Below are positions 8,974-63,440 of a stretch of DNA of 64,000 nucleotides, piece after piece (position 1 is the stretch's first letter; every line of letters begins with the position of its first letter). The notes beneath the pieces are model-generated. The model had not been told where the DNA came from and made no database searches. It saw only the letters and a list, made by a program, of their open reading frames with translations. The position numbers and the translations under genes were made by a program. Origin of the DNA: an uncultured Acidobacteriaceae bacterium (GTDB taxonomy: Bacteria; Acidobacteriota; Terriglobia; Terriglobales; Acidobacteriaceae). The stretch is taken from assembly GCA_963715875.1 (NCBI GenBank), contig OY970281.1, positions 1,135,946-1,199,945 on the forward strand, in the 5' to 3' direction.

Positions 8974-9067
8974 GTTGTCATCCTGAACAAGCGCTTTTTG
9001 CGCAGTGAAGGATCTGGGCGTGCCGCGCGAAGCTGCCTGCCCTGAGCAAGCGCAGCGCGCCGATGGG
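8974..9067 (+). repeat. Family A repeat, copy 1 (degenerate, followed by GCCTGCCCTGAG module)
   Basis: The family consensus is (T)TCTGTCATCCTGAGCG - central hairpin - GCAGTCGAAGGATCCCTA(CCC). This copy reads GTTGTCATCCTGAACAAGCGCTTTTTGCGCAGTGAAGGATCT. Confidence 0.6.
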
Positions 9068-9158
9068 TCGCGTTTTTTGCGACGCAACAATCGCGCGTTT
9101 GGCTCGCTTCGCTATAACTGCACCACTCAGCGATCTCCGCGACAAAAGCTCTAAAGCC

Positions 9159-9614
9159 TCACCCGACCAGCGGCTGTCCCCGCCCCTTAAGAAACGACTC
9201 CACACTCTCCACATAAACCTCCGCAAAATCCGCCACCGGACGCCGCTTCTCAATCAAATCCATCGCATCCTCCACCGTCCACCCCATCACTCCCAGCAGC
9301 GCCAGCGTCATCATCGGCGCCCGGTGCACTCCCGCCGCGCAATGGATATACAATTTCGTCCCATCTTCATCCAGCGCCGCCAGTCCGAACTCCACCCCGC
9401 GCTCAAACACTTCCGCCGGCTTCGACTCGAAATCGTCGTCCACCGGATTCCAGCACACTTCAATCCCCTGCGCCTTCCCCAGCGTCGTGTCATCGAACTC
9501 AATCTGCATGTCGATGATGTGCGTCACTCCCGCCCGCGCCACTTCCGCCATGTTCTCCGCATTCCAGATTCCGCCCCCGACCGCGATTCGGTCGGTCACC
9601 CACGTCATATCCAT
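9159..9614 (-). CDS. Dual-specificity (Cys-based) protein phosphatase
   Basis: The HCAAGVHRAP active-site loop fits HCxxGxxR. I chose the start at MDMTWVTDRIAVGG (ATG 9614). The longer track ORF to 9926 adds an Arg-rich extension that runs through repeat DNA. Confidence 0.75.
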   Translation of the reverse strand: MDMTWVTDRIAVGGGIWNAENMAEVARAGVTHIIDMQIEFDDTTLGKAQGIEVCWNPVDDDFESKPAEVFERGVEFGLAALDEDGTKLYIHCAAGVHRAPMMTLALLGVMGWTVEDAMDLIEKRRPVADFAEVYVESVESFLKGRGQPLVG

Positions 9615-9790
9615 TCCCACTCTGCGTCCTGTGCTGCGGATTTTTCCATCCGCGAGATTTCTCCCGGAAAACTCTCCCCGGACCCTTCCCGGAATCGCTC
9701 CCGCCATCTCTCTCCGGCGCGATCCCACTCGCGGCGAAACCGACAGCGCCATCGCCCTGTCCATCTCTCCCGCACCAAAACTCCCGCGCT

Positions 9791-10234
9791 TCATTTTACG
9801 GTATCCCCTCCACACGCACCCGTCTGTTCTTCTCCGCGCCCCCCGCGGATCTTCTCCGCGTTCTCCGCGCTGAAAGGCGTCAATCTGTCGTCCCGCAAGC
9901 GACCAGGTTCGTTGTTCTTCCCACACTCCGCAACCACCGGTTCCAGTGGCAGCCCCAGCCGCATCAGCAGAGTTCCCGCCAGCGAATTCTCCGGGAACGC
10001 CTCCCCCGTAGTCGCCTCCGTCGCCGGATACAACCCGACGATTTCAAACAAATACTTCATCGCGGCCAGCCGCGCACTATTTCCATCGTCAATCAGCGTA
10101 CCCACCATTCCGTTCGCCTTTTCGCCCACCAACTTGCTGATCCCTTTCCGCACCGCAACAAAATCCACCGCCAAATCCTCTTTCAACACGCCGTCGTTTT
10201 CAGTCACCCGCCCCCCCTGCTCCAATCTTGTCAT
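9791..10234 (-). CDS. Hypothetical protein
   Basis: Track ORF with ordinary composition and no recognisable domain. The C-terminal ...FSAENAEKIRGG is encoded by a CTCCGCG-word repeat, so the tail may be a repeat-derived extension. Confidence 0.45.
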   Translation of the reverse strand: MTRLEQGGRVTENDGVLKEDLAVDFVAVRKGISKLVGEKANGMVGTLIDDGNSARLAAMKYLFEIVGLYPATEATTGEAFPENSLAGTLLMRLGLPLEPVVAECGKNNEPGRLRDDRLTPFSAENAEKIRGGRGEEQTGACGGDTVK

Positions 10235-10295
10235 TCCGAACCGCCGGGACGGCGGGTGAGGAACCTGCTGTTAGCCGCCACTCCCCCGCCGCCCG

Positions 10296-10330
10296 CCAAA
10301 AAACACGAAAGGCGCGCCCGAAGCGCGCCT
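10296..10330 (-). terminator. Intrinsic terminator ending the Zn-ribbon/sigma-like operon
   Basis: An 8-bp GC stem AGGCGCGC/GCGCGCCT (10310-10317 and 10323-10330) encloses a 5-nt loop. On the minus strand it is followed by TTCGTGTTTTTTG. Confidence 0.6.
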
Positions 10331-10441
10331 TCCCAGTACTATTGCTTTTTCTTTTACTCTATATATCCAGAATAGCATACGGCAATGGGTAGCTGCATCA
10401 CGATTTGCTGAACTTTATTCCCCACCTCTTCAGCAACTTAA

Positions 10442-11065
10442 CTACTTTTCCACAGATTTTGCCTCTTGACAGCTTTTCGCTCCTTCCGTTTTTTCCGCCT
10501 CCGTCAGCAATCCCACTCGCAAAAACTCCTCGCTCAGCAGGTCCAGCACCTCATACAGCCTCCGCTGAACTGTGGCCCGCCCGCAATTCAGCAAGCGCGC
10601 CGCCTCCCACTGATCGTGTTCCTGCAGGATCACCCTAGCGATCAACTCCTGATCCCACTTCCGCAGCCGCCCCAGGCACATCTCCACATCCCGCACCAAA
10701 ATCACTCGATCCTCGAACGTCACCGGACGGTACGCCGTCACCTTCGCCCGAAAAAATTCCCGCCCCATGATCGACGGCAATCTTCCCGTCTCCAGCGAAA
10801 ACCTCATATACCGCCGCAACAGTCCCACCGTGCGGTTCCGGTACATCCAAACATCCGGATTCCGATCCGAGGCATCGCCTTCCGGCCATCCCTCATCGCA
10901 GTCCGGCCCTGCCGTAAATCTGTACGGTGGCAGTTCCACTCCCATCGCACCCGCTCCGCACTGCGGACCCTGATTGCCAACTGGCATTCCGTTTGGGACG
11001 ATTCCGCCTTTCGCCGGATCCCATCCCTCCGCCTCAGCCGCGATCCATTCCACAAAGTTGCTCAT
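10442..11065 (-). CDS. Sigma-70 region-4-like / HTH transcription factor (no recognisable region 2)
   Basis: The C-terminal WDQELIARVILQEHDQWEAARLLNCGRATVQRRLYEVLDLL resembles a sigma region 4 HTH. The start ATG overlaps the upstream stop (ATGA at 11062-11065), which indicates translational coupling. Confidence 0.6.
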   Translation of the reverse strand: MSNFVEWIAAEAEGWDPAKGGIVPNGMPVGNQGPQCGAGAMGVELPPYRFTAGPDCDEGWPEGDASDRNPDVWMYRNRTVGLLRRYMRFSLETGRLPSIMGREFFRAKVTAYRPVTFEDRVILVRDVEMCLGRLRKWDQELIARVILQEHDQWEAARLLNCGRATVQRRLYEVLDLLSEEFLRVGLLTEAEKTEGAKSCQEAKSVEK

Positions 11066-11337
11066 TCCTCGCCTCCCGTTTCGTCTACGTCCAGATCGTC
11101 ATGGCTCTCGTAGTCTTCGTACCAGTCGCTGTCGGAACCACACCCCAACTCCGGAAACAGCTGTTCCTCGTCGGGCTCATGCGAAACCGCGGGCAATTGC
11201 GCGATCGCGCTCTCGCATGCCGCGCAATACACCTGCCCTGTGCCCACTTGCCGCAGCCACAACCCGCCACAGCGTTCGCAATACTTCAACTCAAATTGCA
11301 TTCTTGTTGCCGAACTCCCGTCTTCTTCTTTCATCAT
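11062..11337 (-). CDS. Small zinc-ribbon protein with an acidic tail
   Basis: The sequence has CERCGG...CAACES (CxxC-N17-CxxC) and a D/E-rich C-terminus. The preferred start is MMKEEDG, just after AGGAGG. The track start at 11382 would abut the U-tract of the upstream terminator. Confidence 0.55.
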   Translation of the reverse strand: MMKEEDGSSATRMQFELKYCERCGGLWLRQVGTGQVYCAACESAIAQLPAVSHEPDEEQLFPELGCGSDSDWYEDYESHDDLDVDETGGEE

Positions 11338-11384
11338 TCCTCCTAAAGTCTCGCGCTTTCGAATAGCCGGGCCCAGCGGCATAA

Positions 11385-11439
11385 CAAAAAAAGCCCTGCG
11401 TCGGTCAGCCGCCCTCTCAGCGGAAACCGGACGCAGGGC
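11385..11439 (-). terminator. Strong intrinsic terminator after the YezD-like gene
   Basis: A 10-bp stem GCCCTGCGTC (11393-11402) / GACGCAGGGC (11430-11439) is followed on the minus strand by TTTTTTTG. Confidence 0.65.
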
Positions 11440-11529
11440 TCGTTTCTCTTACGATGGCCTGCTTGGCTATTTACTTGTCGTACCCACTCCTCGAACTTCG
11501 CCTCCTCGCTTCAGCAGGCGATTTCTGCG

Positions 11530-11769
11530 CTACAGTTCGCTCCTACCCTCTTGCTCCAGCATCGTCCCCGAACCGTGTTGGTGGAAATATCCTTCGTCGT
11601 ATCCCGATTTCAGCACCCGCCCGTTCTGCACCACCACGCTGATCCGCCCGCTGAATTTCACAGACCTCAGCAGGTGCTCCATCGCTGCCGACAGCACTTC
11701 TGCGTCCCGCATCTTCCGCCGGAATTCCCCGAAGTGCTTTTCTTCGTTGGGGTTATATCCGTTGTTCAT
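11530..11769 (-). CDS. Small protein, DUF2292/YezD-like
   Basis: KFSGRISVVVQNGRVLKSGYDEGYF resembles the YezD motif (GS-hTh-hQDGKVhQ). A GAGGAGAGG RBS sits about 6 nt upstream of the ATG. Confidence 0.5.
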   Translation of the reverse strand: MNNGYNPNEEKHFGEFRRKMRDAEVLSAAMEHLLRSVKFSGRISVVVQNGRVLKSGYDEGYFHQHGSGTMLEQEGRSEL

Positions 11770-11922
11770 GGCCGCCTCTCCTCGATCGATAGACTGAGTT
11801 ATAGTCTGTTGGCGATCCTATAGCTGTCGAATATTGCGGGTCAAGGTCGTTATACCAATGGGGCTGTGGAAAACTCTTTTCGATTAGCGCATTGCTATAG
11901 CCCACATGCTATACTCCGAGTT
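11770..11922. promoter_or_regulatory. Divergent promoter/operator region of the CI/LexA-like switch
   Basis: ATAG-containing words are present: GATAGACT 11788, TATAGTCT 11800 (together forming AGACT-N7-AGTCT inverted arms) and CTATAGCT 11818. There is a direct repeat TGCTATAG 11893 / TGCTATAC 11907. TGCTATACT fits an extended -10 that ends 7 nt before ATG 11923. Confidence 0.4.
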
Positions 11923-12639
11923 ATGAAATTCCGAGTTCTGCAGGAAAATCTCCGCAACACCATCTGGGAGCGCATCGAAGAAGGCGATCTCACCGGCCTC
12001 CGTCTCGCCCAGCAAACCGGCTTCAAACAGGCCCATATCTCCAACTTCCTCAATCGCAAGCGCGGCCTCAGCCTCGAGGGCATGGACCGTGTCCTCGCTG
12101 TCCAGCATCTCTCCGTTCTCGATCTCCTCGATCCTTCCGAGGTCAACAAGCGCGCTTCAATTCTGCCTCCCAGCAACGACGAGTTTCAAAACGTTCTTCT
12201 GGCCGACTCCACCGTCGCCGCTACCAACCCCATCATCACCAGCATGAACGTCAAAGAAATCGTCAAGTTCAAAAAGAGTTTTCTGAAAAAGCTCAAGGCG
12301 GAATCCGAAGGCCCTCGCGAAGATTGGGAGCGTTTCGTCGTCATCAAAGTCGATGCTCGCGAGGGGATGAGCATGTACCCGCGCCTGCTCCCCGGCGCCA
12401 CGCTCCTCATCGACCGCCATTACAACTCACTCAAGCCCTACCGCAAGGGCGAGTTCAGCATGTACGCTGTCCGTAAAAACGACACCTGCACCGTCAAATA
12501 CGTCGAACTAGCCGGCAATCATCTCATCCTCCGCCCCCACAACCAGGCCTATCCCATCGAAGTCATGACCATTGAAGACGGCAAGCACCCCTCCGACTAC
12601 TTAGTAGGCCGCATCTGCCACATAAGCATCGAAACCTAA
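11923..12639 (+). CDS. CI/LexA-like repressor (XRE-type HTH + S24 peptidase domain)
   Basis: The N-terminal LRLAQQTGFKQAHISNFLNRKRGLSLEGMDRV is an HTH. The C-terminal EGMSMYPRLLPGATLLID carries the Ser motif G-x-S-M, and CTVKYVEL...LRPHN carries the Lys motif of S24 peptidases. ATG 11923 is preferred over the GTG at 11866. Confidence 0.8.
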   Translation: MKFRVLQENLRNTIWERIEEGDLTGLRLAQQTGFKQAHISNFLNRKRGLSLEGMDRVLAVQHLSVLDLLDPSEVNKRASILPPSNDEFQNVLLADSTVAATNPIITSMNVKEIVKFKKSFLKKLKAESEGPREDWERFVVIKVDAREGMSMYPRLLPGATLLIDRHYNSLKPYRKGEFSMYAVRKNDTCTVKYVELAGNHLILRPHNQAYPIEVMTIEDGKHPSDYLVGRICHISIET

Positions 12640-12676
12640 CAGGGAAGACCGCAACGTGAGCGTGCCGGTCGGAATA

Positions 12677-12765
12677 AGCCGCGAAGCGGCGCAAGAATGC
12701 AGCCCACCGCGCAAGCGGTGGGTTGCGATAAGGAAATTAGTCAGAGCCCCAGCGGGGCGACAGAC
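12677..12765 (+). repeat. Family B repeat (triple-hairpin ~90-nt element), copy 1
   Basis: The consensus is AGCCGCGAAGCGGCGCAAGAATGCAGCCCACCGCGCAAGCGGTGGGT..(about 20 nt)..AGAGCCCCAGCGGGGCGAAAGA. Confidence 0.8.
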
Positions 12766-12788
12766 AGCCCACCCGAACCGATGCGCAG

Positions 12789-12877
12789 TTCTGTCATCCT
12801 GAACAAAACCAAGACGATCACAGGGAGTCCCGGTGCAGTCGAAGAGCCTGCCCCGAGGTTGTCGAGGGGATCCCTAC
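12789..12877 (+). repeat. Family A repeat, copy 2 (long form with nested module)
   Basis: TTCTGTCATCCTGAAC...GGGAGTCCCGGTGCAGTCGAAG[AGCCTGCCCCGAGGTTGTCGAGG]GGATCCCTAC. Confidence 0.7.
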
Positions 12878-12926
12878 TCGCACCCAACCGCCGAAGTCCA
12901 GCGAAGCCGTCCCTGGAAGAAGCACC

Positions 12927-14468
12927 CTACCCATTCCCCAAACTATCGAACATCTTCCACAACTTATCTCCCGTAGCCCGATAAATCACATACCCGCTGC
13001 CCGCATCGCTCGTCTCCCGGAACAGCAACTCCCCACGCCCATCTCCATCCACATCCACCGCATCAATCAGCTCCAGTTGCGGAGTCACGTCCAGATGAAA
13101 TTTATCCGTCACTCCGCTATACAGCTTGCGCAGGTTGCCGTAGATATCGGTTTTCGCCACCAGCATCACGCTGTAGCTTTCCTCCGGCTCCCCCGCAGCC
13201 CCCGCCAGATGCGCCTCCGCGCTCAAGATCATCACCGGCTGGTTGTTCCCCCAAAGGTCATAGCCGCGAAACTGGACCTTCTCAAACGACGCCTGTACCG
13301 GCTTCACCGCAGCCTTGTGTCCCTTCGCCTTCACGCTCGGTGCATTCGCCGGGATCCGATTCTTTGCCAATGCACTCGCATACGCCCGCACTTCATCTCC
13401 CGCCAGTGCCAGCATCTGCTTCTGCCGATCTTCATCTTCCCCTGTCTTCCAGAAAAAATTGTACGTTCGTGGCTCCGGCCCACCCTCATCGGATATCGCC
13501 GCCACCACCCGCACCTCCGTCTCCCCACCGGCTTTCTTCTCACCTGTCGCGGCCTTCGCCGTCTCCTCTTCCACCGCCGGAGCCGCTTCCGTTGGTTTTC
13601 CTCGCCTCAGCGTCGGCCGGTAATAATTCTGATCCTGACCCTGAGGAGCCGTGTCCGACCCAGCTTTTGCCTGCGCCGCCTGATTCCCCCCCGAGTCGGA
13701 AGGTTTTCCTCCAGCTGTCCCGGACGTACCGCCGCTCGCCGTCCCGCCCGCCGCCGAACCGCTCCCGGCCGCTGGCGTAGACGCGCCCGGCTTCTCCGCC
13801 GCTCCAGTCCCCGCCCCTGAATCGCCCGCTGCCGCCGGACTCCCCGCCCCAGCCGCACTTCCCGCACTCGGAGCCGCCCCTGCTTTCGCCCCATTCCCCT
13901 TAGTCAGCCGCGGCGGTTCATCTCCCCCGCTGTTGTCCAGCCCCACCGGCACCGTCTCTGCTTTCAGACTTGTCTTGGCCGGCCCGGTTCCATTCGGGTA
14001 GTAGGCCCCCGCTCCCACCCAGGGATGCACGCTCGCCGCCTTGTAATGCCGTGCCTGGTTGATCGTGAACAGCCCCTGCGATACCCCCGCCTGCTCCGCC
14101 TCATACACCGTGCCCGGTTCCACCGCCATCGGCACCGGCTCCGCTTTGTACGCGCTGGCATCGTAAAACTTGCCCTCAACCAGTATTGCGATCGGGATCA
14201 GCATCGCCTTTCCCTCGCTGCTGAATTGCACCACCCCCACCGCCCGCGGCCCTTTCACCTTCGGTTTCTTTTTTACCTCCGGCGGCTTTTCCTCCGGAGT
14301 GTCTCCGGGCCGCTTCAGTTGCGGCATTTGCGCCGCTCCCCGCGCCACCCCCATGGCAAAAAACGCCAGAATCACCATGACGGCTGGCCCTGATCTGCGG
14401 TATAAACGCTTTCTGGACAAAACGAGTCCCGTCCACCCTGACTTCCATCGAATCGAGGCGATCTTCAT
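12927..14468 (-). CDS. Secreted protein with a long G/A/S/P low-complexity linker and a C-terminal FG-GAP/VCBS-like DVDGDGRGELLF motif
   Basis: Track ORF. The signal-like segment is RKRLYRRSGPAVMVILAFFAMGVARGAAQ. The start is uncertain: ATG 14468 or ATG 14378. Confidence 0.6.
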   Translation of the reverse strand: MKIASIRWKSGWTGLVLSRKRLYRRSGPAVMVILAFFAMGVARGAAQMPQLKRPGDTPEEKPPEVKKKPKVKGPRAVGVVQFSSEGKAMLIPIAILVEGKFYDASAYKAEPVPMAVEPGTVYEAEQAGVSQGLFTINQARHYKAASVHPWVGAGAYYPNGTGPAKTSLKAETVPVGLDNSGGDEPPRLTKGNGAKAGAAPSAGSAAGAGSPAAAGDSGAGTGAAEKPGASTPAAGSGSAAGGTASGGTSGTAGGKPSDSGGNQAAQAKAGSDTAPQGQDQNYYRPTLRRGKPTEAAPAVEEETAKAATGEKKAGGETEVRVVAAISDEGGPEPRTYNFFWKTGEDEDRQKQMLALAGDEVRAYASALAKNRIPANAPSVKAKGHKAAVKPVQASFEKVQFRGYDLWGNNQPVMILSAEAHLAGAAGEPEESYSVMLVAKTDIYGNLRKLYSGVTDKFHLDVTPQLELIDAVDVDGDGRGELLFRETSDAGSGYVIYRATGDKLWKMFDSLGNG

Positions 14469-14946
14469 GAGTGTCAATGTCAATGATAAGGCTCCTGAAT
14501 TTACTTTGCAGGACGAAAACGGAAAGGAAATCTCGCTCAAAAGTTTGCGCGGCAAAGTCGTTGTGCTCTATTTCTATCCCCGCGCCGACACTCCCGGCTG
14601 CACCATCGAGGCCTGCGAGTTTCGCGACACCTACAAACAGATGCAGAAAACCGGCGCCGTGTTACTCGGCATCTCCCCCGACACCCCCGCTGCCCAGAAA
14701 AAATTCCAGGACAAATTCCATCTCCCCTTCACTCTCCTCGCCGACGCCGACAAGAAAGTCGCCATCGCCTTCGACGTGCTCAAAGAAAAAAATATGTACG
14801 GCAAAAAAGTCATGGGGATCGTCCGTACCACCTTCATCATCGGCCCCGACGGCAAAATTCAACACATCTTCCCCAAAGTAAAAGCCGAAGGCCACGCCGC
14901 AGAAGTCCTGGCCTACCTAAAAGAATCAGCCAAAGGCGCAGCCTGA
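14467..14946 (+). CDS. bcp: Thioredoxin-dependent peroxiredoxin Bcp
   Basis: APEFTLQDENGKEISLKSLRGKVVVLYFYPRADTPGCTIEACEFRD carries the PxxxTxxC peroxiredoxin motif. The start is MSVNVND. Confidence 0.9.
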   Translation: MSVNVNDKAPEFTLQDENGKEISLKSLRGKVVVLYFYPRADTPGCTIEACEFRDTYKQMQKTGAVLLGISPDTPAAQKKFQDKFHLPFTLLADADKKVAIAFDVLKEKNMYGKKVMGIVRTTFIIGPDGKIQHIFPKVKAEGHAAEVLAYLKESAKGAA

Positions 14947-14950
14947 GCGG

Positions 14951-15270
14951 AAGTCAGAAGTCAGAACGAAGAATGCAGAAGTAAGAGGTAAGAAGTAAGA
15001 ATGAAGAACGAATCGTAACCAGGGATATCCAAGTTTAACCTCTGCATCCTGACCCCCGACCGCGTAGCGCCGGCATCCTGCCGGCTGTCCCGAGGGCGTC
15101 TCGCCCTCGGCCCGGCGACCACAACCGGCCTACATTTTCGATTGCTCTTTGTTGACTTCCGCCCCCGGGCAGGGATGTCCAGGTTTTAACTTCTGATTCT
15201 GACTTCTGACCTCTGCATTCTGATTCGCATTCTAGCTTCTAACTTCTGACCTCTGCCTTTTGACTTCCGC
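14951..15270. repeat. Family E: purine-rich word block (GTCAGAAGTCAGAA...GCAGAAGTAAGA) and its complement about 230 nt downstream
   Basis: The left block is 14951-15012 and the right block (TTCTGACTTCTGAC, CTCTGCATTCTGA ...) is 15186-15270. GTCAGAAGTCAGAA (14953-66) is exactly complementary to 15196-15209. The interior holds two GC hairpins (GCCGGCATCCTGCCGGC; CCGAGGGCGTCTCGCCCTCGG). Confidence 0.65.
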
Positions 15271-15294
15271 CCCCGAAATTCTGCATCCTGACCT

Positions 15295-15924
15295 GTGCCC
15301 CCGCCCATCTCCTCGCTCCCCCGCGCCTTTTTCCTCCGCGGCCCGCGTCTCGTCGCCCGCGCCCTGCTCGGCAAGGTCCTGGTCCGCGACGCCGGCCAAC
15401 TGACCGCCCGCATCGTCGAGGTCGAAGCCTATCTCGGAGAGCGCGATCCCGCCTCTCACGCTTTTCCCGGATTAACTCCGCGCAATGCCGTCATGTTCGG
15501 TCCTCCCGGCTTCGCCTATGTCTACTTCATTTATGGAGTTCATTATTGCCTGAACGTCTCCTGCCAACGCGAGGGCCTCGCTGGCGCCGTTCTTTTCCGC
15601 GCTGCCGAACCGCTCACCGGACTCGAAGAAATGGCGCGCGCACGCGGCGTCACCGTACACGGTCCCCGCGATCTTCCCAAACTCACCAGCGGCCCCGGAC
15701 GCCTCGCCGAAGCCTTCAGCATCACTCGCGCCCGCGATAACGGCTGCGATCTAACCTCGCCCGCATCCAGACTGTGGCTTGGCGATGACGGTTTTCGCTC
15801 CGGAAAAATCCTGGTCACCCCACGCATCGGCATCACCAAAGCCGCCGACGAACCCCTGCGCTACCTCCTGGCAGGAAACGCGTTCGTCTCCGGCCCGAAA
15901 GCTCGGCCTAAATCGGAAGCGTGA
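15295..15924 (+). CDS. mpg: DNA-3-methyladenine glycosylase (AAG/MPG family)
   Basis: FFLRGPRLVARALLGKVLV...RIVEVEAYLGERDPASHAF...PGFAYVYFIYGVHYCLNV is typical of the family. GTG start. Confidence 0.85.
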   Translation: MPPPISSLPRAFFLRGPRLVARALLGKVLVRDAGQLTARIVEVEAYLGERDPASHAFPGLTPRNAVMFGPPGFAYVYFIYGVHYCLNVSCQREGLAGAVLFRAAEPLTGLEEMARARGVTVHGPRDLPKLTSGPGRLAEAFSITRARDNGCDLTSPASRLWLGDDGFRSGKILVTPRIGITKAADEPLRYLLAGNAFVSGPKARPKSEA

Positions 15925-16203
15925 GGAAATGATCGCTTGAATGGTTTTTTCAAGCGTCCTTGTGTGCATCCTGGCGTTCTAACCCACAAACTTCTTCGCG
16001 TCCTTAGCGGATTTCCTTAGCGGACTTGGCGCTCAAAGGCTTTTGGTCGACCCCGGCAACCGGATTTGACAAACGGGTGTAGACTATCGCTCGGGCCAAA
16101 TGCACGCGGAACCCCGTGCTGGACAAGGCATTTGCCGGAAAGACCGACAGATTAGGCTTCAAAGTTTCAACGAAAAAACTTTGAAACCTTGAGACTTTGA
16201 AAC

Positions 16204-18047: not shown

Positions 18048-18107
18048 ATCGAGCAGCTCGATCGTTTTTCTCTCGCTCTTCTCCACAAGGTGAAACCCGA
18101 AACTCCC

Positions 18108-31630: not shown

Positions 31631-31687
31631 TTTGTCATTCTGAGCGCCGGGCGAGCGATAGCGAGCACAAGTCGAAGAATCCCTATC
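31631..31687 (+). repeat. Family A repeat, copy 6
   Basis: TTTGTCATTCTGAGCGCCGGGCGAGCGATAGCGAGCACAAGTCGAAGAATCCCTATC. Confidence 0.65.
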
Positions 31688-32458: not shown

Positions 32459-32526
32459 CTTCTGTCATCCTGAGCGGAGTGAATGCGAGCGTAGCGAAGC
32501 ACTCACGCAGTCGAAGGATCCCTATC
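32459..32526 (+). repeat. Family A repeat, copy 7 (GTGAATGC/GCACTCAC hairpin type; partial duplicate at about 32426-32455)
   Basis: CTTCTGTCATCCTGAGCGGAGTGAATGCGAGCGTAGCGAAGCACTCACGCAGTCGAAGGATCCCTATC. Confidence 0.8.
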
Positions 32527-32594
32527 AGCGAGAACAAGCCGATCCGATATCGTCAGCACTCGCAACTCGGTACCTGCAACTCGCAGCTCGCAAC

Positions 32595-34003: not shown

Positions 34004-34006
34004 TCC

Positions 34007-36504: not shown

Positions 36505-36525
36505 GGGCACGACTTCAGTCGTGCC
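36505..36525. repeat. Family F hairpin (GGGCACGAC-loop-GTCGTGCC), copy 1
   Basis: GGGCACGACTTCAGTCGTGCC. Confidence 0.6.
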
Positions 36526-39805: not shown

Positions 39806-39842
39806 CGAAATATCCCCCCGTTCCCACGAATGAATTCGGGAA

Positions 39843-39864
39843 GGGCACGACGTTTAGTCGTGCC
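39843..39864. repeat. Family F hairpin, copy 2
   Basis: GGGCACGACGTTTAGTCGTGCC, preceded by TTCGGGAA as in copy 3. Confidence 0.6.
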
Positions 39865-39914
39865 ATCCGTCGCAATTAAAGACACGGGCTTTAGCCACTG
39901 GAGGATACCGGTCG

Positions 39915-41580: not shown

Positions 41581-41644
41581 CGAATTATCCCCCATGGATG
41601 CCCTGGCAGACTGCAGAAAACCCCGGTTCGAAGCGGTTCGGGAA

Positions 41645-41688
41645 GGGCACGAGTTCCAGCCTGCCCTGAGCGAAGCCGAAGGGTGCCG
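41645..41688. repeat. Family F hairpin, copy 3, split by the nested GCCTGCCCTGAG module
   Basis: TTCGGGAAGGGCACGAGTTCC[AGCCTGCCCTGAGCGAAGCCGAAGG]GTGCC. Confidence 0.55.
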
Positions 41689-41812
41689 CTAAGTCGCTGA
41701 AAATTGGATCGCGCTTCAGCGCCTGAGGTACGCTCCTTGCTGCTCCCCCGAGTTTTTCCGCAGCCTGCTAAAAAGGCACAGCACAAATTTTTGAAATCAG
41801 TGAAAACTCGAA

Positions 41813-47768: not shown

Positions 47769-47978
47769 CCCACAACTGAGGCTGCCCCACCCTTGCCGCG
47801 TTCCCATAGCCAGGCGCGCCCGCACCCAGCATTCGCGGCAAGTGCCTGCCCTGAGCGGAGCCGAAGGGGTGGGTTTCCACAAAATGCCGACAGCTCGTCA
47901 CCACAACCGAGGCTGCCCCATCCTTGCCGCGTTCCCATAGCCAGGCGCGCCCGCACCCAGCATTCGCGGCAAGGGTGG
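47769..47978 (+). repeat. Family H: two tandem ~75-nt units with 132-bp period; unit 1 carries a nested module
   Basis: CCACAAC(T/C)GAGGCTGCCCCA(C/T)CCTTGCCGCGTTCCCATAGCCAGGCGCGCCCGCACCCAGCATTCGCGGCAAG occurs at 47769 and 47901. In unit 2 the arm CCTTGCCGCG pairs with CGCGGCAAGG. In unit 1 TGCCTGCCCTGAGCGGAGCCGAAGG is inserted after CGGCAAG. Confidence 0.8.
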
Positions 47979-48018
47979 GATACTACGAACGTCGAAAGCT
48001 CATCACCACCGCGATCCC

Positions 48019-49450: not shown

Positions 49451-49525
49451 GTTGTCATCCCGAAACGCGGCGTACTTCAGCCGCGTGAGGAGCCTGCCCT
49501 GAGGCGAATGCCGAAGGGATCTCCC
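49451..49525 (+). repeat. Family A-like repeat, copy 9 (with nested module)
   Basis: GTTGTCATCCCGAAACGCGGCGTACTTCAGCCGCGTGAGG[AGCCTGCCCTGAGGCGAATGCCGAAGG]GATCTCCC. Confidence 0.55.
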
Positions 49526-52002: not shown

Positions 52003-52123
52003 GATTTTCAACCCGAGGTGTGCCCAGTCCCAGCCGCGAAGCGGCGAAAGAATGCAGCCCACCGCGTAAGCGGTGGGTCGGCCCAGCCGACAACGGAACC
52101 AGAGCCCCGAAGGGGCGAAAGAC
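52003..52123 (+). repeat. Family B repeat, copy 3 (with 5' extension GGGATTTTCAACCCGAGGTGTGCCCAGTCCC)
   Basis: The extension is shared with copy 4. The core runs 52032-52123. Confidence 0.8.
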
Positions 52124-54052: not shown

Positions 54053-54066
54053 GGTTTTTGCGACCC

Positions 54067-55197: not shown

Positions 55198-55282
55198 TGC
55201 TAGATTCTATCGAATGGAGGTTCGCCGAAGCCTGCACTACCACGAAAAAGGCTGAGGTAGCTCCGTGGAAACATCCCTAATA

Positions 55283-55373
55283 TTCTGTCGTCCTGAGCGA
55301 AGCTGGAACGACCGAAGGGAGTCCCGGCGCAGTCGAAGAGCCTGCCCCGAGCTTGTCGAGGGGACCCCTACCC
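55283..55373 (+). repeat. Family A repeat, copy 11 (long form with nested module)
   Basis: TTCTGTCGTCCTGAGCGAAGCTGGAACGACCGAAGGGAGTCCCGGCGCAGTCGAAG[AGCCTGCCCCGAGCTTGTCGAGG]GGACCCCTACCC. Confidence 0.8.
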
Positions 55374-55449
55374 GCTCCCCAGACCCGTCCCTCTGAGCTT
55401 CACCTGATCCCAAACAAGAACATGTCGGGACAGCCGCCCCCGGCTGTCC
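55374..55449. repeat. Family C repeat with leader, copy 5
   Basis: ...CCCGTCCCTCTGAGCTTCACCTGATCCCAAACAAGAACATGTCGGGACAGCCGCCCCCGGCTGTCC. Confidence 0.75.
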
Positions 55450-55458
55450 GGGGTTGGC

Positions 55459-55580
55459 TGGGATTTTCAACCTGAGGTGTGCCCAGTCCCAGCCGCAAAG
55501 CGGCGAAAGAATGCAGCCCACCGCGCAAGCGGTGGGTCACGAAAGGAAAACCAAGCAGAGCCCCAGCGGGGCGAAAGAGC
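55459..55580 (+). repeat. Family B repeat, copy 4 (with 5' extension)
   Basis: GGGATTTTCAACCTGAGGTGTGCCCAGTCCCAGCCGCAAAGCGGCGAAAGAATGCAGCCCACCGCGCAAGCGGTGGGTCACGAAAGGAAAACCAAGCAGAGCCCCAGCGGGGCGAAAGAGC. Confidence 0.85.
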
Positions 55581-55669
55581 CACCTGGCGCGCACCGAAAA
55601 GGGTGTCAGACAAAATCTGGCATGCAATAAGTCACGAAATTCGAGGAAACGGCAAGGTTCCAGCCGCGT

Positions 55670-55780: not shown

Positions 55781-55837
55781 GCGCCAATGGTAGCAGCCCC
55801 GCGCAGACCGCAGAAATGTGCCCGTGATCGCCCGCTC

Positions 55838-55878
55838 TACCCCGTGTCCCTCTGTGCCCCCTGTGGTAAAGATTTTTC
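55838..55878 (+). repeat. Family D repeat, copy 8
   Basis: TACCCCGTGTCCCTCTGTGCCCCCTGTGGTAAAGATTTTTC. Confidence 0.75.
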
Positions 55879-55904
55879 CGCCCACCCTGACCTTGGACCG
55901 TAGC

Positions 55905-58472: not shown

Positions 58473-58800
58473 AAGAATCTCCTTTTCCTTTGCCAGAACC
58501 GCGGGCGATACGTTGGAGAGAGACCGGAAAACCCGGCGTGATCCTGCGTTAGGCCGTGGTTCGCATCTGCGATGGGGTTGCGTGGTTGTTGCTCACGTCG
58601 ATTTCGCGCTTCCGGCCTGCGGGGGAATAGATTGCGGGCGAGCGACGGGCGCAGTTCCAGCCCAATAAGATCACAACCACGGTGAACGCGCGGTGACGAC
58701 TGACAGCACGAAAGGTGATATATCGCACTTGGGGACCCTTAGAGCAAATGGGCCCCGCAAGTATTCCGCATGTATTACAGATCTGCAGCCGAAAAGCCCC

Positions 58801-58890
58801 AGCCGCGAAGCGGCGCAAGAATGCAGCCCACCGCGCAAGCGGTGGGTCACGAAAGGAAAATTAAGCAGAGCCCCAGCGGGGCGAAAGACC
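58801..58890 (+). repeat. Family B repeat, copy 5
   Basis: It is almost identical to copy 4 across the core. The trailing CGCTAACGGTGAC(T/C)ACCAT is shared with copy 6. Confidence 0.85.
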
Positions 58891-58983
58891 ACCCCTCACG
58901 CGCTCACGAACGGGCGCTAACGGTGACTACCATTCCTCACATAAAGCAGCCCCGCATTTCTGCGAGGCTGCTTGGAATGATGC

Positions 58984-61900
58984 CTACTTCCCGGTTCCCG
59001 TCAGGCTGACAGTCTGCGGGCTGTTGTTGCCGCTGTCGTTGAGGCTCATCGTCGCCGTGCGTGTGCCTTTGGCTTGCGGAGTAAATGTCACCGAAATCGT
59101 ACACCTCGCCTTGCTGGCGACCGTGCTGCCGCAGGTGTCGGTCTCAGCAAAATCCCCTGGATCAGCACCCGTGAACGTGACACCTGTAAAGCTGAGAGCT
59201 GAAGGCAGTTCGTTGGTTAAGGTTACTTTCTTGGCCAGACTCGTTGTGCCCACAGTCTGTGAGGCAAATGTAAGGCTGGTTGGGGTCCAGGTCACTTGAG
59301 CCTCACCTTTTCCCGTCAACGAAACCGTCTGCGGGCTGCTCAGCGCGCTGTCAGTCAGCGTCAACACGCCACTACGCGTGCCCGTACTCGACGGCGTAAA
59401 ACTGACTTTAATAGTGCACGATTTTCCCGGAGCGATCGACCCCGTGCAAGTATTGGTCTGGGCAAAATCGCCGCCGTTGGCGCCGGAGATCACGATACTC
59501 GTGAAGGTCAGCCCGTAGGTTGTCCCGGTGTTCTTCACGGTCACGCTCTTTGTCGCGCTAGTGGTGTCGATTGCCTGGGTGGCAAAGCTCAAGCTCACCG
59601 GCGTCACGGTTACGGTTGTCCCCGGAGTAGTTCCGGTTCCGCTGAGGTAGGCCACTTGCGGACTGTTCGCCCCGCTATCGCTGATCAGGAGTGCGCCTTC
59701 GAGCAGTCCTGTTTCAGTCGGCGAAAAGTAAACGGTGATGACGCAACTCGTTCCAGCGGCGATACTCGATCCACAGTTGTTGCCCTGCGTAAAGTTGGTG
59801 GTCGCTTCAATCAGGGTAAACGTGATGGCCTGGCCGCCGTTATTGGTCAGCAGCACAGGCTGGCCTGCGCTCGTTGTGCCGACAAGTTGATTGCCAAAGC
59901 TGAGGCTGGTGGGCGATACGCTGACCGCGGCAACATACACCTGCTCGCTGAGCACCGAAGAAGTGCTGCCGAGGTTGTTCGCATCTCCGCTGTAGCTGGC
60001 GGTGATGCTGTGGGAACCAGCGGCCAGCGCCTGCGTGAACCAGGTCGTCTGTCCGTTCGTTCCCACCGAGGTACTACCCACATTCGTGGCCCCGTCAAAG
60101 AACGTCACGGTTCCCGTCGGAGTTCCGGTGCCCGGATAATTCTCGGTTGTGCTTGCGGTGAACTGGATCCACTGCCCCGCGTCAGCGGGGTTGGGGTTTG
60201 AGCTCAGGGTCGTGGCCGTGCTCGCAGGAACGACAGCGAACAAGTAGGCGGCCTTGAAGCCAATCAACTGCTGCTCCACCCCGGTCGAGGTTGAATCCTG
60301 GCCATCGGTGGCGAAGGCGTAGATGACGTGAATGCCCAAGGGCACCCCTGTTAGGGTCGCGCCGAAATACGGCGCTACTCCTGAGGCGCGCAGCCACGGA
60401 CCCTGGAAGCTGTCAAGCTGATACCACACGGCTTGCGGCGTCGGAGCCGTCGGCCCGAAGGAACTGGTCGCGGTGAAGTCGAAAGTGATGGGGCCCTGCA
60501 CCGTCTGGTTGTTGGGCAGGGTCGAAATCGTAGTGGTGAGCGGGATGGCATACACTTGCTGCTCCGCGATCACGTTGACGTTGTCGCTGGCGAGACCGTA
60601 ATTCACCACGTAAATCCTGGGGTACAACGGATTGAATGCCATCTGATAAGGGTTAACGCCCACAGCTATGGTCTCGGTTCCGTTGCTCGCGCCATCAATC
60701 ACGGTGAGGCTGCTGCCGAGTGAGTTGGAGACATAGATCTTGTTGCTCAACGGATTCACCAGCACAGCCCCAGGAATTTGGCCCACGGCGATAGTTTTCG
60801 TCGCATTGGTAACTCCGTTGATGATAGAAACTGTATTGTCCTGCGCGTTCACGACGTAAATGTTGTTGGTTTGCAGGTTCACGGCCACGGCACTGGGATA
60901 TTTCCCGACCGTGATGGTCTGGGTGGCATAGGTCACGCCATTGATCACCGTAACCGTCCCGGCGAATGTATTGGCGACGTAGATCATGTTGGTAAGCGGG
61001 TTCACGGCTAAAGCCGTGGAACCGTATCCAGTCGATATCGTCTGCGTCGCATTGGTGACGCCATCAATCACGGTCACATTGAAGCTGTTCCCGTTAGCGA
61101 CAAAGATCTTGTTGGTGACCGGATTCACGGCCACGGCTATGGGATACGTTCCGGTCGGAATCGTCTGGGTGGTATTCGTCGCGCCATTGATCACGCTGAC
61201 ATTATTGCTCTGGCAATTCGCCACGTAGATCATGTTGGTCAATGGATTGATATCGAGGGCGATGGGACCGGAACCCACATTCACTTCCTGGGTGGCATTG
61301 GTTTCCCCGTCGATCACCGTCACCGTGCTCGCGTTGCCCCCGTTGTAGTTGGGAACATAAATAGTGTTGGTCAGCGGGTTCAAGGCAACCGCGTACGGAG
61401 TTGTGCCCGCAGGCACAGTCTGGGTGGTCAAAGTCACGCCGTTGATGACGGTGACGTTATTGCTATCCTGATTCGGTACGTAGATTGTGTTGGTCTCCGG
61501 ATTCACCGCGACTCCATACGGAACGGATCCCGCAGCCACAGTCTGAGTCGTATTGATCGCGCCATCGATGACGGTGACGTTGTTGCTTCCATGATTGGCG
61601 ACGTAAATTCGGTTGCTTGTGGTGTCGGAAGCGATAGCGTCAGGATTGCTTCCAACAACGGCCGGCATGTTGGTGGTGATATTGGTCACGCCGTCGATTA
61701 CAGTGACGTTGCTGCCGGTGTAATCGGCCACGTAAATCCTGTTTGTCAGCGTGTTGACGGTTACCGAGAGGGGCTCTCCCCCGGTCGCTACCGTCTGAGT
61801 TGCGTTCGTTGCGCCATTAATCACCGTGACAGTGTTGCTGCTCGCATTCGTCACGTAGATCATATTGGTCACCGGGTTCACCGCTACCGCGTACGGATAC

Positions 61901-62622
61901 GTTCCCGTAGTTACGGCTTGGGTCGCGTTGGTCGCGCCATTGATGACCGTGACACTGTTGCTGCCCTTATTTGATACGTAGATCGTATCGGTCACCGGGT
62001 TCACCGCCACCCCGACGGGGCCTGACCCCACGGGTACGGTCTGGGTGGCATTGGTCGCTCCATTGATTGCGGTGACGTTATTGCTGCCATAGTTGGCGAC
62101 GTAGATCATATTAGTCGCCGGGTTCACTGCCACCGCGATGGGGGCTGACCCCGCAGGTACGGTCTGGGTGGCATTGGTCGCTCCATTGATGACTGTGACG
62201 TTATTGCTCTCATAGTTTGTCACGTAAATCATGTTTGTCACTGCATTGACGGCCACGGCGGTGGGATTGCTGCCCGCGCTGACCGTCGTAGTTGCGTTGG
62301 TCGCGCCGTTGATCACGGTCACGGTGCCGCCATCATTGGCTACATAGATGGTGTTGGTCAGGGCGTTTACCGCTACCGCGGCAGGCTCGGTCCCGACCGG
62401 AACCACGGTGGTCGAATTCGTCAGTCCGTTGATCACCGTGACGCTGTTGCCTAGTATGTTGGCGACGTAGATGGTGTTGGTCTCCTGGTTGATGGCTACG
62501 GCGTTGGGACCGGTACCAGCGGGCACCGTGCCTAGTACCGTCTGGCTCGCGGTCACACCGGAAATCACGATGACGAACAAGAACGCGATGAAAAGCTTTT
62601 GTGACTTGGGAAGAGTGCGCAT
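58984..62622 (-). CDS. YVTN beta-propeller repeat protein with C-terminal Ig-like (Big_3-like) and four choice-of-anchor-D/ASH-like domains
   Basis: It has the same YVTN units, followed by VTFFDGATNVGS...SHSITASYSGDANN, and then repeated units of the type LSFGNQLVGTTSAGQPVLLTNNG...C...I.V.F.P...G. An AAGGAG RBS precedes ATG 62622 (MRTLPKSQKLFIAFLFVIVISG). Confidence 0.9.
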   Translation of the reverse strand: MRTLPKSQKLFIAFLFVIVISGVTASQTVLGTVPAGTGPNAVAINQETNTIYVANILGNSVTVINGLTNSTTVVPVGTEPAAVAVNALTNTIYVANDGGTVTVINGATNATTTVSAGSNPTAVAVNAVTNMIYVTNYESNNVTVINGATNATQTVPAGSAPIAVAVNPATNMIYVANYGSNNVTAINGATNATQTVPVGSGPVGVAVNPVTDTIYVSNKGSNSVTVINGATNATQAVTTGTYPYAVAVNPVTNMIYVTNASSNTVTVINGATNATQTVATGGEPLSVTVNTLTNRIYVADYTGSNVTVIDGVTNITTNMPAVVGSNPDAIASDTTSNRIYVANHGSNNVTVIDGAINTTQTVAAGSVPYGVAVNPETNTIYVPNQDSNNVTVINGVTLTTQTVPAGTTPYAVALNPLTNTIYVPNYNGGNASTVTVIDGETNATQEVNVGSGPIALDINPLTNMIYVANCQSNNVSVINGATNTTQTIPTGTYPIAVAVNPVTNKIFVANGNSFNVTVIDGVTNATQTISTGYGSTALAVNPLTNMIYVANTFAGTVTVINGVTYATQTITVGKYPSAVAVNLQTNNIYVVNAQDNTVSIINGVTNATKTIAVGQIPGAVLVNPLSNKIYVSNSLGSSLTVIDGASNGTETIAVGVNPYQMAFNPLYPRIYVVNYGLASDNVNVIAEQQVYAIPLTTTISTLPNNQTVQGPITFDFTATSSFGPTAPTPQAVWYQLDSFQGPWLRASGVAPYFGATLTGVPLGIHVIYAFATDGQDSTSTGVEQQLIGFKAAYLFAVVPASTATTLSSNPNPADAGQWIQFTASTTENYPGTGTPTGTVTFFDGATNVGSTSVGTNGQTTWFTQALAAGSHSITASYSGDANNLGSTSSVLSEQVYVAAVSVSPTSLSFGNQLVGTTSAGQPVLLTNNGGQAITFTLIEATTNFTQGNNCGSSIAAGTSCVITVYFSPTETGLLEGALLISDSGANSPQVAYLSGTGTTPGTTVTVTPVSLSFATQAIDTTSATKSVTVKNTGTTYGLTFTSIVISGANGGDFAQTNTCTGSIAPGKSCTIKVSFTPSSTGTRSGVLTLTDSALSSPQTVSLTGKGEAQVTWTPTSLTFASQTVGTTSLAKKVTLTNELPSALSFTGVTFTGADPGDFAETDTCGSTVASKARCTISVTFTPQAKGTRTATMSLNDSGNNSPQTVSLTGTGK

Positions 62623-62892
62623 GACAGTCTCCTTTACGCCTGTTCGATGGGCTTGGAGGAAGGGCCTTTCCGGAAGCAATTGCGGGACGGCTACGGGGGA
62701 CGGCAAGTCGTGTGCTTCCCTACAGCCCGATGTAACCCAGGAATCAGAGCGTTCTGCCTCAGGGCAGGGTCGCGTTCCATGGCAGGAAAGTGCTCTTACG
62801 AGGAGGCGCCTCAATATAGTCCAAAAGCGCGAAGAAGTCGGTGACCTGAGTCACCTAACGACGTGGGGGCTGGCCCACCTTTGCCGTAACAG

Positions 62893-62962
62893 CCACAACC
62901 GAGGATGCCCCACCTTTGCGTCCTTTGCAAAAGCCTGCCCTGAGCTTGCCGAAGGGGTGGGC
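62893..62962 (+). repeat. Family H-related unit with nested module
   Basis: CCACAACCGAGGATGCCCCACCTTTGCGTCCTTTGCAAA[AGCCTGCCCTGAGCTTGCCGAAGG]GGTGGGC. Confidence 0.6.
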
Positions 62963-63028
62963 CGCGATGCCGCCGTTAGCGAAAGGATTTTGATCCTGAC
63001 GCATAATGAAGAATGCGGGGAAGAATGC

Positions 63029-63190
63029 GGGGACAGACGGGGCTGGCACTATCTCCTTACTGTCCTACACCTCGAAGGTAAGGTGATTCTGCGGGATATC
63101 CGCGGCGCAAGCGCAGAGGGAAAATTCCTCCCGCAGAGCGGTCGTGCTCCCACATCGGGAAAAAACAATCGTGCCAGTCCCGTCTGTCCC
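63029..63190. repeat. 162-nt element bounded by ~20-nt inverted repeats
   Basis: GGGGACAGACGGGGCTGGCAC (63029-49) pairs with GTGCCAGTCCCGTCTGTCCC (63171-90). The interior has further hairpins (CCTTAC...GTAAGG; CTGCGGGA...TCCCGCAG). Confidence 0.6.
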
Positions 63191-63231
63191 TGCATGTATT
63201 CGTCCTGCGGTCGAACAAACACCCAGCCCAC

Positions 63232-63320
63232 AGCCGCGAAGCGGCGCAAGAATGCAGCCCACCGCGCAAGCGGTGGGTCACGATAGCAAAATCAAGCAGA
63301 GCCCCAACGGGGCGAAAGAG
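63232..63320 (+). repeat. Family B repeat, copy 6
   Basis: AGCCGCGAAGCGGCGCAAGAATGCAGCCCACCGCGCAAGCGGTGGGTCACGATAGCAAAATCAAGCAGAGCCCCAACGGGGCGAAAGAGC. Confidence 0.85.
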
Positions 63321-63350
63321 CAGCGCTAACGGTGACCACCATCTCTAAAG

Positions 63351-63440
63351 CTGTGTCTTCCTGAGCGCAGCCGGAACGACCGGAGGGAGTCCGGCGCAGT
63401 CGAAGAGCCTGCCCCGAGCCTGTCGAGGGGATCCCTACCC
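63351..63440 (+). repeat. Family A repeat, copy 12 (long form with nested module)
   Basis: CTGTGTCTTCCTGAGCGCAGCCGGAACGACCGGAGGGAGTCCGGCGCAGTCGAAG[AGCCTGCCCCGAGCCTGTCGAGG]GGATCCCTACCC. Confidence 0.8.

Follow-up and report, generated by a model that had tools for sequence, protein, structure and literature searches.

How small hairpin repeats spread through bacterial genomes is an open question. A repetitive extragenic palindrome (REP) that stands alone is generally regarded as what is left of a doublet and as immobile. Di Nocera et al. (2013; PMC3733652) described a class of CGTC-tagged REPs that lacks a dedicated transposase, and Chenal et al. (2025; PMC11893778) reported that Ssn, a single-domain GIY-YIG protein, binds CGTCAT-tagged hairpin repeats as single-stranded DNA and cuts a few bases upstream. 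Neither for CGTC-type REPs nor for Ssn-related motifs (SRMs) is a means of spreading known (PMC3733652, PMC11893778), and REPs inside small palindromes have been reported, as for GTAG-23 of Thermomicrobium roseum (PMC3733652). Here we describe a unit of about 24 nucleotides (nt), hereafter the module, that lies nested in REPs, Ssn-linked hairpins and other host sequences of an uncultured Acidobacteriaceae bacterium. The stretch analysed, referred to as the window, spans 64,000 nt (positions 1,135,946–1,199,945 of one 5.36-Mb contig with 58.6% G+C).

The module follows the formula R-GCCTGCCCYGAG-(5–8 nt loop)-CGARGG and is oriented. Its first base is variable, usually A, and the loop usually reads CYTGY or CRNAGY. 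Within the window the core GCCTGCCCYGAG is matched exactly eight times, in every case on the + strand (at 9035, 12846, 41659, 47844, 49492, 55340, 62933 and 63407), and seven of these belong to complete units. Allowing one mismatch gives 10 matches against 0.92 expected, a number (≥10) reached in none of 100 shuffles; the one-mismatch matches, at 1202 and 62758, are on the − strand within coding sequence and look like chance. An initial annotation of the window had put the size of the unit at 16–25 nt, which is too small, as full units measure 24–27 nt. It had correctly listed a further copy at 49491–49517, which is complete, and an interrupted H-related unit near 62932–62955, where the module sits in an H-type REP. 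Its copy at about 9033–9067 stands in part only, with the 5′ half present but a divergent tail and an incomplete unit.

Genome-wide, we counted 71 exact cores, with the tail following in 66. Some 96 copies are found when two substitutions are allowed, a number that includes chance matches in genes, and 79 of these 96 loosely defined copies fall outside predicted genes (gene calls, like the skew estimates below, come from simple scripts of our own). The module is high-copy, mostly intergenic and oriented, and the clear copies in this genome are intergenic and nested in other repeats. They occur as singletons or direct tandems, not as inverted doublets, with the module inside a reverse-oriented module in two cases only (at 2026581 and 5182472). 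Read directly from the sequence, the 24-nt form lacks a stop codon in five of its six reading frames.

To find empty sites, 60 nt of left flank were joined to 60 nt of right flank for each copy, and genome matches crossing the joint were collected. Uninterrupted host matches exist for most module copies, with one clean gap that is usually exactly 24 nt, and clustering by shared empty sites yields 18 host contexts (examples in Table 1). Among the places entered are loops and stems of the REPs of REP-associated tyrosine transposase (RAYT) genes, the TGTCAT hairpins flanking Ssn-type GIY-YIG genes, other hairpins, another module and, at one locus of a relative (L116, below), unique DNA. The initial view of a small module nested in at least three host repeats is therefore borne out and exceeded, as is that of an insertion unit with occupied and empty versions of its hosts, whose boundaries are exact. 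The clearest pair consists of two adjacent tandem H units, of which the first was already described as interrupted and the second as not: they differ at 1 of 65 nt before the site, and unit 1 has a 25-nt insert that unit 2 lacks. Long and short forms of family A are likewise both present (24-nt filled and empty). For the family F hairpin, the comparison of the filled copy (41640–41690) with a related empty one (39838–39865) stands, but the hairpin at 36505, also cited as uninterrupted, belongs to a different REP family.

GTCGA(A/G)G, which appears on both sides of the insert in long family A copies, had been taken for a target-site duplication. We rejected this, because YCGARGG belongs to the module in every host and phylum: it is the module's own 3′ arm, covarying with the 5′ arm, and the end of family A resembles it because family A is a hairpin built along similar lines. 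In most hosts no duplication is seen at all (e.g. CCCAC^GGCG, GCCGGC^GTCC and GCAAA^GGTG, the caret marking the site), and most other junctions share nothing, or at most 1–5 nt, with the module. The suggested consensus target xGAAG^G did not hold up either; the sites share just a G immediately 3′ of the unit, plus, at about half of the events, an AG in front of it. What has been inserted is a discrete unit; its ends are exact, its entry duplicates no target, and it has entered unrelated sequences many times independently before multiplying within host families.

The filled state is the derived one, because the REP copies that flank RAYT genes are empty and because empty copies greatly outnumber filled ones (55 against 5 in the CCCAC family). 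That the long forms are instead ancestral, with all empty forms produced by precise deletion between short direct repeats, is very improbable. One unit in a tandem array (genome 3899352–3899469) has indeed lost its module, by recombination between GTCGAAG and GTCGAGG, and the array, which lies beside a GIY-YIG gene, holds three states: the normal empty GTCGAAGGATCC, the filled and the module-lost GTCGAGGGGATCC. Such a deletion leaves a trace (GTCGAGGGG) that ordinary empty copies (GTCGAAGGA) do not carry, and normal empty sites are therefore not products of this kind of loss. Furthermore, most host junctions lack direct repeats, the RAYT-flanking REPs and the large majority of copies are empty, and the module would have to be an original constituent of each of some 18 unrelated families.

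Gain or loss of the module is also found at orthologous sites between species. Several loci from the pattern scan described below are syntenic with this genome at 70–86% identity, and three of them (L122, L092 and L116) are filled in the other species and empty here. In orthologous regions from metagenomes, where the best relatives have 84% protein identity, 331 kb contained no module, a result that probably reflects the tendency of contigs built from short reads to end at repeats. A much closer strain is represented by a 3.09-Mb metagenome contig (ENA ERZ25039540 contig_624), 99.4–99.7% identical, which we compared over 8.9–15.6 kb and 24.1–54.7 kb of the window. In the latter interval the sole indel of ≥4 nt is a 14-nt microsatellite change. 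Length differences from this strain are confined to AT-rich periodic tracts (CTTCTGCATTCTTA-type units, at 34004 and 15162–15275), microsatellite-like variable promoter regions. At 12880–12925, just after the module, the 3′ part of the family A/C repeat has a concentration of substitutions and small indels that the nearly identical neighbouring genes lack, which suggests gene conversion between repeat copies.

We scanned a species-genome collection (~600 Gb) with the 18-base pattern GCCTGCCCYGAG-N4-9-CGARGG, which matched at least 120 stretches, where by our own estimate some hundreds of chance matches would be expected. The matches are nevertheless not random, because loops and positions outside the pattern are conserved. 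Among the matches listed, to which the following counts refer, the loop starts with C and ends with Y in 101 of 126, and the loops CGAAGT, CGAAGC, CTTGC, CGGAGY and CCTGT recur. G directly follows the unit in 116 of 127 (91%), and A precedes it (−1) in 87 of 127 (69%). The Y of CCCY and the R of CGARGG pair as T-A in 112 cases, C-G in 10, C-A in 5 and T-G in none; if Y and R were independent, only about one C-G pair would be expected. The matches listed include Acidobacteriota, Chloroflexota, Planctomycetota, Bacteroidota, Verrucomicrobiota (with Kiritimatiellia and Lentisphaerae), Nitrospirota, Nitrospinota, Patescibacteria (Peribacteria, Curtissbacteria), Zixibacteria, Latescibacterota, Dormibacterota, Binatia, Aegiribacteria, Syntrophaceae, and Alpha- and Gammaproteobacteria. 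The unit thus occurs with the same loops and boundaries, nearly identical, in more than 15 phyla and on viral contigs; in the viral-contig collection, about half of the matches listed look genuine.

The contexts in other phyla again look like insertions. A Chloroflexaceae genome has a (GTCACTC)n array that is interrupted by the module precisely between heptamer units, Bacteroidia, Chloroflexota, Aegiribacteria and Dormibacterota have it in TGTCAT hairpins, and in one case a module-type hairpin lies within another. In a Zixibacteria genome (L015, ~1840–1940) and on a viral contig (L247, ~1160–1260), the module was seen inside CCCTCTCCC...GGGAGAGGG...GGGTGAG elements. Full-text searches with the sequence, in both orientations, and with its translations returned no paper describing the unit. 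Rfam holds no match to the module, and a search of 55250–55450 gave nothing credible at E-values up to 10. The sole Rfam family passing in the window is the Acido-Lenti-1 RNA, with five matches of 49–57 bits (gathering score 37); here this 'small RNA' family behaves as a dispersed repeat adjoining family A units.

The module can be drawn as a small asymmetric hairpin. The proposed fold has a 6-nt unpaired 5′ tag, (A)GCCTG, and a CCCY/RGGG stem that would be closed by the G after the unit; further in, two G·A mismatches in Y-GA-R context would be followed by a G-C pair and the loop. Arguments for this hairpin are that one stem pair covaries, that a G stands at +1 to close the stem, that both arms have the Y-GA-R context, and analogy. 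A Y-GA-R context favours stable tandem sheared G·A pairs in DNA, which standard folding parameters do not credit.

With respect to genes, the orientation of the module is unbiased (23 co-directional, 25 anti-directional, 19 convergent and 12 divergent by our gene calls). This bears on another explanation, in which the module is a functional element kept by selection, either as an RNA structure (terminator, stabiliser or processing site) or as a protein-binding site on DNA, and its sites are gained and lost so that they merely look inserted. The covarying stem pair would fit, as would the somewhat larger number of copies between convergent than between divergent genes (19 against 12) and the L059 unit, identical between species at all 25 positions while its surroundings have diverged. 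However, the near-equal numbers of co- and anti-directional copies argue against a sense-strand RNA role, neither Rfam nor predicted folding offers anything remarkable, and exact 24-nt presence or absence inside repeats is not how binding sites normally originate. We consider selection for function an improbable origin.

Orientation does track the local GC skew at third codon positions (GC3 skew) of long repeat-free genes, with 47 of 64 copies on the negative-skew strand (r = −0.47). Every polar repeat family follows the sign of local skew (r from −0.45 to −0.68), and the host families do so more strongly than the module. The skew itself alternates in patches of ~100–300 kb, and cumulative GC skew has no clear two-arm shape, which may reflect many inversions, an assembly problem or something else. 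The whole window (1–64000) lies in a negative-skew patch, and the repeats there consequently point the same way. This polarity fits a single-strand, replication-linked biology for the repeat population as a whole.

Two recognisable groups stand out among the host repeats. With E. coli RayT as tblastn query, and then with a profile, we identified at least eight RAYT genes, each flanked by its own REP; they match PF01797, two of them above the NCBIfam REP_Tyr_transpos cut-off, making this REP–RAYT set unusually rich for a single genome. Family F is the REP of the RAYT at 2,981,197 and family H that of three RAYT paralogues, while the RAYT at 4,904,362 lies between GTGGAAGAGCGGCCC hairpins. A second, class-3-like Y1 class has six copies, mostly frameshifted or broken, flanked by GGGGACAGACGGGACGTACCCCGG-type sequences, and just one truncated open reading frame (ORF) of IS200-like type was seen in the genome. 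RAYT was rejected as the module's cognate enzyme, since each RAYT gene has its own, different REP.

The second group comprises family A and other TGTCAT repeats, with ~330 5′ ends in the genome. Of five single-domain GIY-YIG loci, two are intact and match PF01541, and all five are flanked by (C/T)GTCATCCYGAG...CGARGGATC hairpins, in a layout that matches the NTS-ssnA-NTS arrangement described for Ssn nucleases (PMC11893778). This flanking places family A and the other TGTCAT repeats in the Ssn-related, CGTC-tagged class. The intact genes (genome 3297643–3297975 and 3898844–3899191) encode ~100 amino acids and are bracketed by TGTCAT hairpins; that at 3898844 sits in a tandem array of ~200-nt family A units in which empty, module-filled and module-deleted units are mixed. 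Four Ssn homologues on viral contigs all have (C/T)GTCAT hairpins as flanks, not the module. Mini GIY-YIG cassettes linked to tRNA genes are absent from this genome, where a single module copy has a tRNA in its vicinity. The module core (CCCYGAG-loop-CGARGGG) nearly equals the TGTCAT core (CCYGAG...CGARGG), but the tag differs. An HGTCWY-type tag lies within 90 nt upstream on the same strand in 24–27% of module copies, here and elsewhere, against ~6% expected. At three places (genome 787087–787180, 63709–63780 and 2921913–2921990), a run of truncated TGTCAT 5′ halves (TGTCATCCTGAA, 3–4 times) stands immediately before a complete unit, a pattern reminiscent of copying that was begun repeatedly and broken off.

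Table 1. Coordinates of module copies, empty counterparts and related features. Positions refer to the window unless marked as genome; ^ marks the insertion site.
Feature	Position	Strand	Remarks
Module copy, 24 nt	12845..12868	+	AGCCTGCCCCGAG-GTTGT-CGAGGG, C-G variant; family A TGTCAT hairpin, between GTCGAAG and GATCCC; empty family A copies GTCGAAG^GATCCC, 24-nt gap; also carried by the 99.4%-identical relative
Module copy, 24 nt	55339..55362	+	C-G variant, loop CTTGT; same family A site; 16 empty matches, 24-nt gap
Module copy, 24 nt	63406..63429	+	C-G variant, loop CCTGT; same family A site; 26 empty matches, 24-nt gap
Module copy, 25 nt	41658..41682	+	Loop CGAAGC; within family F hairpin GGGCACGAGTTCC...GTGCC; empty copies GGGCACGAGTTCCACTCGTGCC
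Module copy, 25 nt	47843..47867	+	TGCCTGCCCTGAG-CGGAGC-CGAAGG; splits 3′ arm of family H unit 1, between GCGGCAAG and GGTGGG
Module copy, 27 nt, 8-nt loop	49491..49517	+	GCGAATGC; between GTGAGG and GATCTCCC; 5 empty matches, 27-nt gap; host is a TGTCATCCCGAA-type hairpin, start 49453
Module copy, 24 nt	62932..62955	+	Loop CTTGC; H-type REP, between TTTGCAAA and GGTGGGC; empty copies of that REP flank RAYT genes
Partial/degenerate copy	9033..9067	+	5′ half GCCTGCCCTGAG, then CAAGCGCAGCGCGCC in place of loop and CGAAGG; host is a TGTCATCCTGAA-type element, uninterrupted version at genome 402286
Family H unit 2, empty	47908..47985	+	Junction 47973/47974 (GCGGCAAG^GGTGGG); counterpart of unit 1
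Empty F-type REP hairpin (GGGAAGGGCACGACGTTTAGTCGTGCC)	39838..39865	+	Filled relative at genome 3245322
Empty family A unit (...GCAGTCGAAG^GATCCCTA...)	32463..32530	+	Genome 1168408
Further empty family A units	Start near 31633, 34790, 53912		Genome 1167578, 1170735, 1189857
Empty site, family A			GTCGAAG^GATCCC
Empty site, CCCAC family			GCAGCCCAC^GGCGCAAG; 55 empty and 5 filled copies
Empty sites, H-type REPs			TTTGCAAA^GGTGGG and GCGGCAAG^GGTGGG
Empty site, GTAGCGCCGGC family, first hairpin			GCGCCGGC^GTCCCGCCGGC
Empty site, GTAGCGCCGGC family, second hairpin			GTCCCGAG^GGCGTCTCGCC
Empty site, family F			GAGTTCCACTC^GTGCC
Empty site, TGTCATCCCGAA-type hairpin			CGCGTGAGG^GATCTCCC
Empty site, GACAGCC family			GCCAC^GACAGCC
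Empty site, REP of RAYT at 4904362			CCCTTTAG^GGCCGC
Empty site, reverse-oriented module			CTCAG^GGCAGGC
Orthologous locus L122	Genome 3,170,8xx		Relative: 25-nt module in TGTCATTCCGAACCGGGC...GGTGAG^GAACC hairpin; here: same hairpin, empty
Orthologous locus L092			Relative: module in loop of orthologous hairpin; here: loop is AAG
Orthologous locus L116			Relative: 24-nt module in unique DNA beside stop codon; here: absent
Orthologous locus L059			Module in both, 25/25 identical; whole alignment 76% identical
RAYT genes	Genome 2981197-2981604, 4903985-4904362, 2103691-2104146, 2107851-2108306, 3854721-3855176, 4307324-4307713, 2828050-2828505, 3022782-3023069
Intact GIY-YIG gene with hairpins	Genome 3297480-3298160		L326:380-1060
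Intact GIY-YIG gene with hairpins	Genome 3898400-3899920		L325:100-1620
Acido-Lenti-1 matches	12677-12722, 52032-52077, 55491-55536, 58801-58846, 63232-63277	-	Family B of the initial annotation

We propose that the module is a mini-element of the REP/SRM class, a single-strand hairpin that is not autonomous and that, once inserted, hitch-hikes within host repeats; to this reading we assign an even chance. Entry would occur on single-stranded DNA and be carried out in trans by a structure-specific enzyme; Y1/HUH transposases related to RAYT and IS200, or Ssn-like nucleases whose cut is then repaired, would be candidates. The insertion sites lie nearly always directly 5′ of a G, often after AG. 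After entry, the module probably multiplies with its host repeat, either because the host is itself mobilised or by gene conversion among the host copies, which would explain why each host family has its own module variant in several dispersed copies. Mobility of the module as such is an inference.

Several observations weigh against this proposal. No dedicated enzyme was found at the RAYT, Y1 and GIY-YIG loci of this genome or in the surroundings of the listed copies elsewhere. The module flanks none of the eight RAYT or six class-3-like Y1 loci; it is not the own flank of any GIY-YIG locus either, being present only inside the family A units beside the gene at 3898844. Searches of 0.86 Mb around 120 listed module copies of other genomes, and of 1.08 Mb of viral contigs, found no RAYT, Ssn or GIY-YIG homologue accompanying the module. 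A stable fold is not predicted: nearest-neighbour energies of the module are −2 to −4 kcal/mol in the DNA form and −5 to −8 in the RNA form, values that shuffled sequences reach as well (z near 0), and insertion weakens the predicted hairpins of hosts F and H. The 3′ junction is exact, but the 5′ junction is looser, with A, G, T or C as first base, and four family F copies have an extra TTGA or TGTGA there. Polarity, too, may be nothing more than that of the hosts passed on to the module, and it is reversed in one host family (6 of 22). Lastly, the close strain, in which presence/absence polymorphism had been sought, shows no repeat gained or lost over the ~37 kb compared, five module copies included, and any turnover must therefore be slow.

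Some of these points would equally suit a passive passenger, and several empty sites share 1–5 nt with the module ends (AG^G, AAGG, AGCCT), so that microhomology-mediated copying also fits. Under such an account, the main rival to our proposal, the module is not itself mobile and spreads only with its host repeats and by gene conversion, the ~18 cross-family events are rare illegitimate copying, for example microhomology template switching at hairpin-rich single-stranded DNA during replication or repair, and its taxonomic range stems from horizontal transfer of host repeats and phages. Each host family does have its own module variant, the C-G variant being confined to family A and the CGAAGC loop to family F, and the same C-G variant is found in family A subfamilies with different inner hairpins, which implies recombination between copies. 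The missing enzyme, the unchanged close strain and the presence of the module on viral contigs point the same way. Illegitimate copying should, however, give ragged ends, whereas the unit ends in ...CGARGG at its 3′ side and begins N-GCCTG at its 5′ side across hosts and phyla, as in the Chloroflexaceae heptamer array. The module also occurs in unique DNA (L116), and its near-identity in more than 15 phyla, with conserved flank preferences, suggests a specific partner. We judge passive carriage alone to be rather unlikely.

Beyond hitch-hiking of a single-strand mini-element, a bolder version is possible though doubtful: the ~24-nt hairpin would be mobile in its own right, the smallest such element known, spread across bacteria, and would enter single-stranded DNA as a seamless copy on the 5′ side of a G. 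Other REP and SRM hairpins (in loop or stem), tandem arrays, gene ends and, in frame, coding sequence would serve as targets, and the module would be moved in trans by a conserved single-strand enzyme, possibly an Ssn-type GIY-YIG protein with a different tag specificity or a Y1 transposase. The module may be the smallest insertable DNA element yet seen.

For the question of how small hairpin repeats spread, the module provides clean material, with dozens of exact filled and empty pairs in many contexts and phyla and both ends defined to the base. It shows that as little as 24 nt can insert into other repeats and be carried along by them afterwards. Should there be a cognate enzyme, these boundaries predict its cut sites, and the Ssn nucleases of the same genome are the obvious first candidates. 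Together with its hosts, the module also explains many spurious small ORFs and short-read assembly breaks in soil bacteria.

The module resembles REP, BIME (bacterial interspersed mosaic element) and REPIN (REP doublet)–RAYT systems in its design, an imperfect palindrome that is short and oriented and follows a conserved 5′ tag left unpaired, in its tens of mostly intergenic copies in repeat mosaics, in the lack of target duplication and in sharing its genome with bona fide REP–RAYT pairs. It differs in its tag, which is (A)GCCTG in all copies where that of REPs is GT[AG]G, and in flanking no RAYT. It forms single hairpins rather than inverted doublets, is nearly identical across phyla whereas REP families are lineage-specific, and lives inside other REPs.

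With SRM/NTS repeats and CGTC REPs it has in common a 6-nt oriented tag, a hairpin with a short tail and a near-equal core, as well as same-strand enrichment inside such hairpins; CGTC REPs are also without a dedicated transposase. AGCCTG fits HGTCWY at only 4 of 6 positions, and by eye the module misses the published HGTCWY..stem..loop..stem..RNCYNB motif (PMC11893778). The host TGTCAT hairpins match that motif in tag and tail, with G·A mismatches in their stems, and it is (C/T)GTCAT hairpins, not the module, that flank the GIY-YIG genes here and on four viral contigs. Ssn is a nuclease, and we know of no joining activity for it.

The palindrome-associated elements of the IS200/IS605 insertion sequences are similar in seamless insertion without target duplication and may be so in seamless excision, hairpin dependence, strand polarity and insertion beside a short sequence, but they need two subterminal hairpins and a defined 4–5-nt 5′ target, whereas the module is one 24-nt hairpin whose best-conserved flank base is the 3′ G. 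Unlike a miniature inverted-repeat transposable element, the module, with ends AGCCTG and CGAAGG, has no terminal inverted repeats and makes no target duplication. Rickettsia palindromic elements and intragenic REPs are likewise small palindromic units with a length that is a multiple of three and open frames (as in the 24-nt form); the Rickettsia elements are longer and confined to one lineage, and the clear module copies here are intergenic. Finally, host repeats with or without an extra segment at fixed positions, as seen here, are familiar from enterobacterial repetitive intergenic consensus (ERIC) sequences with internal insertions, BOX elements and BIME mosaics. Those inserts are family-specific and larger, whereas here one 24-nt unit occupies many unrelated families and phyla.

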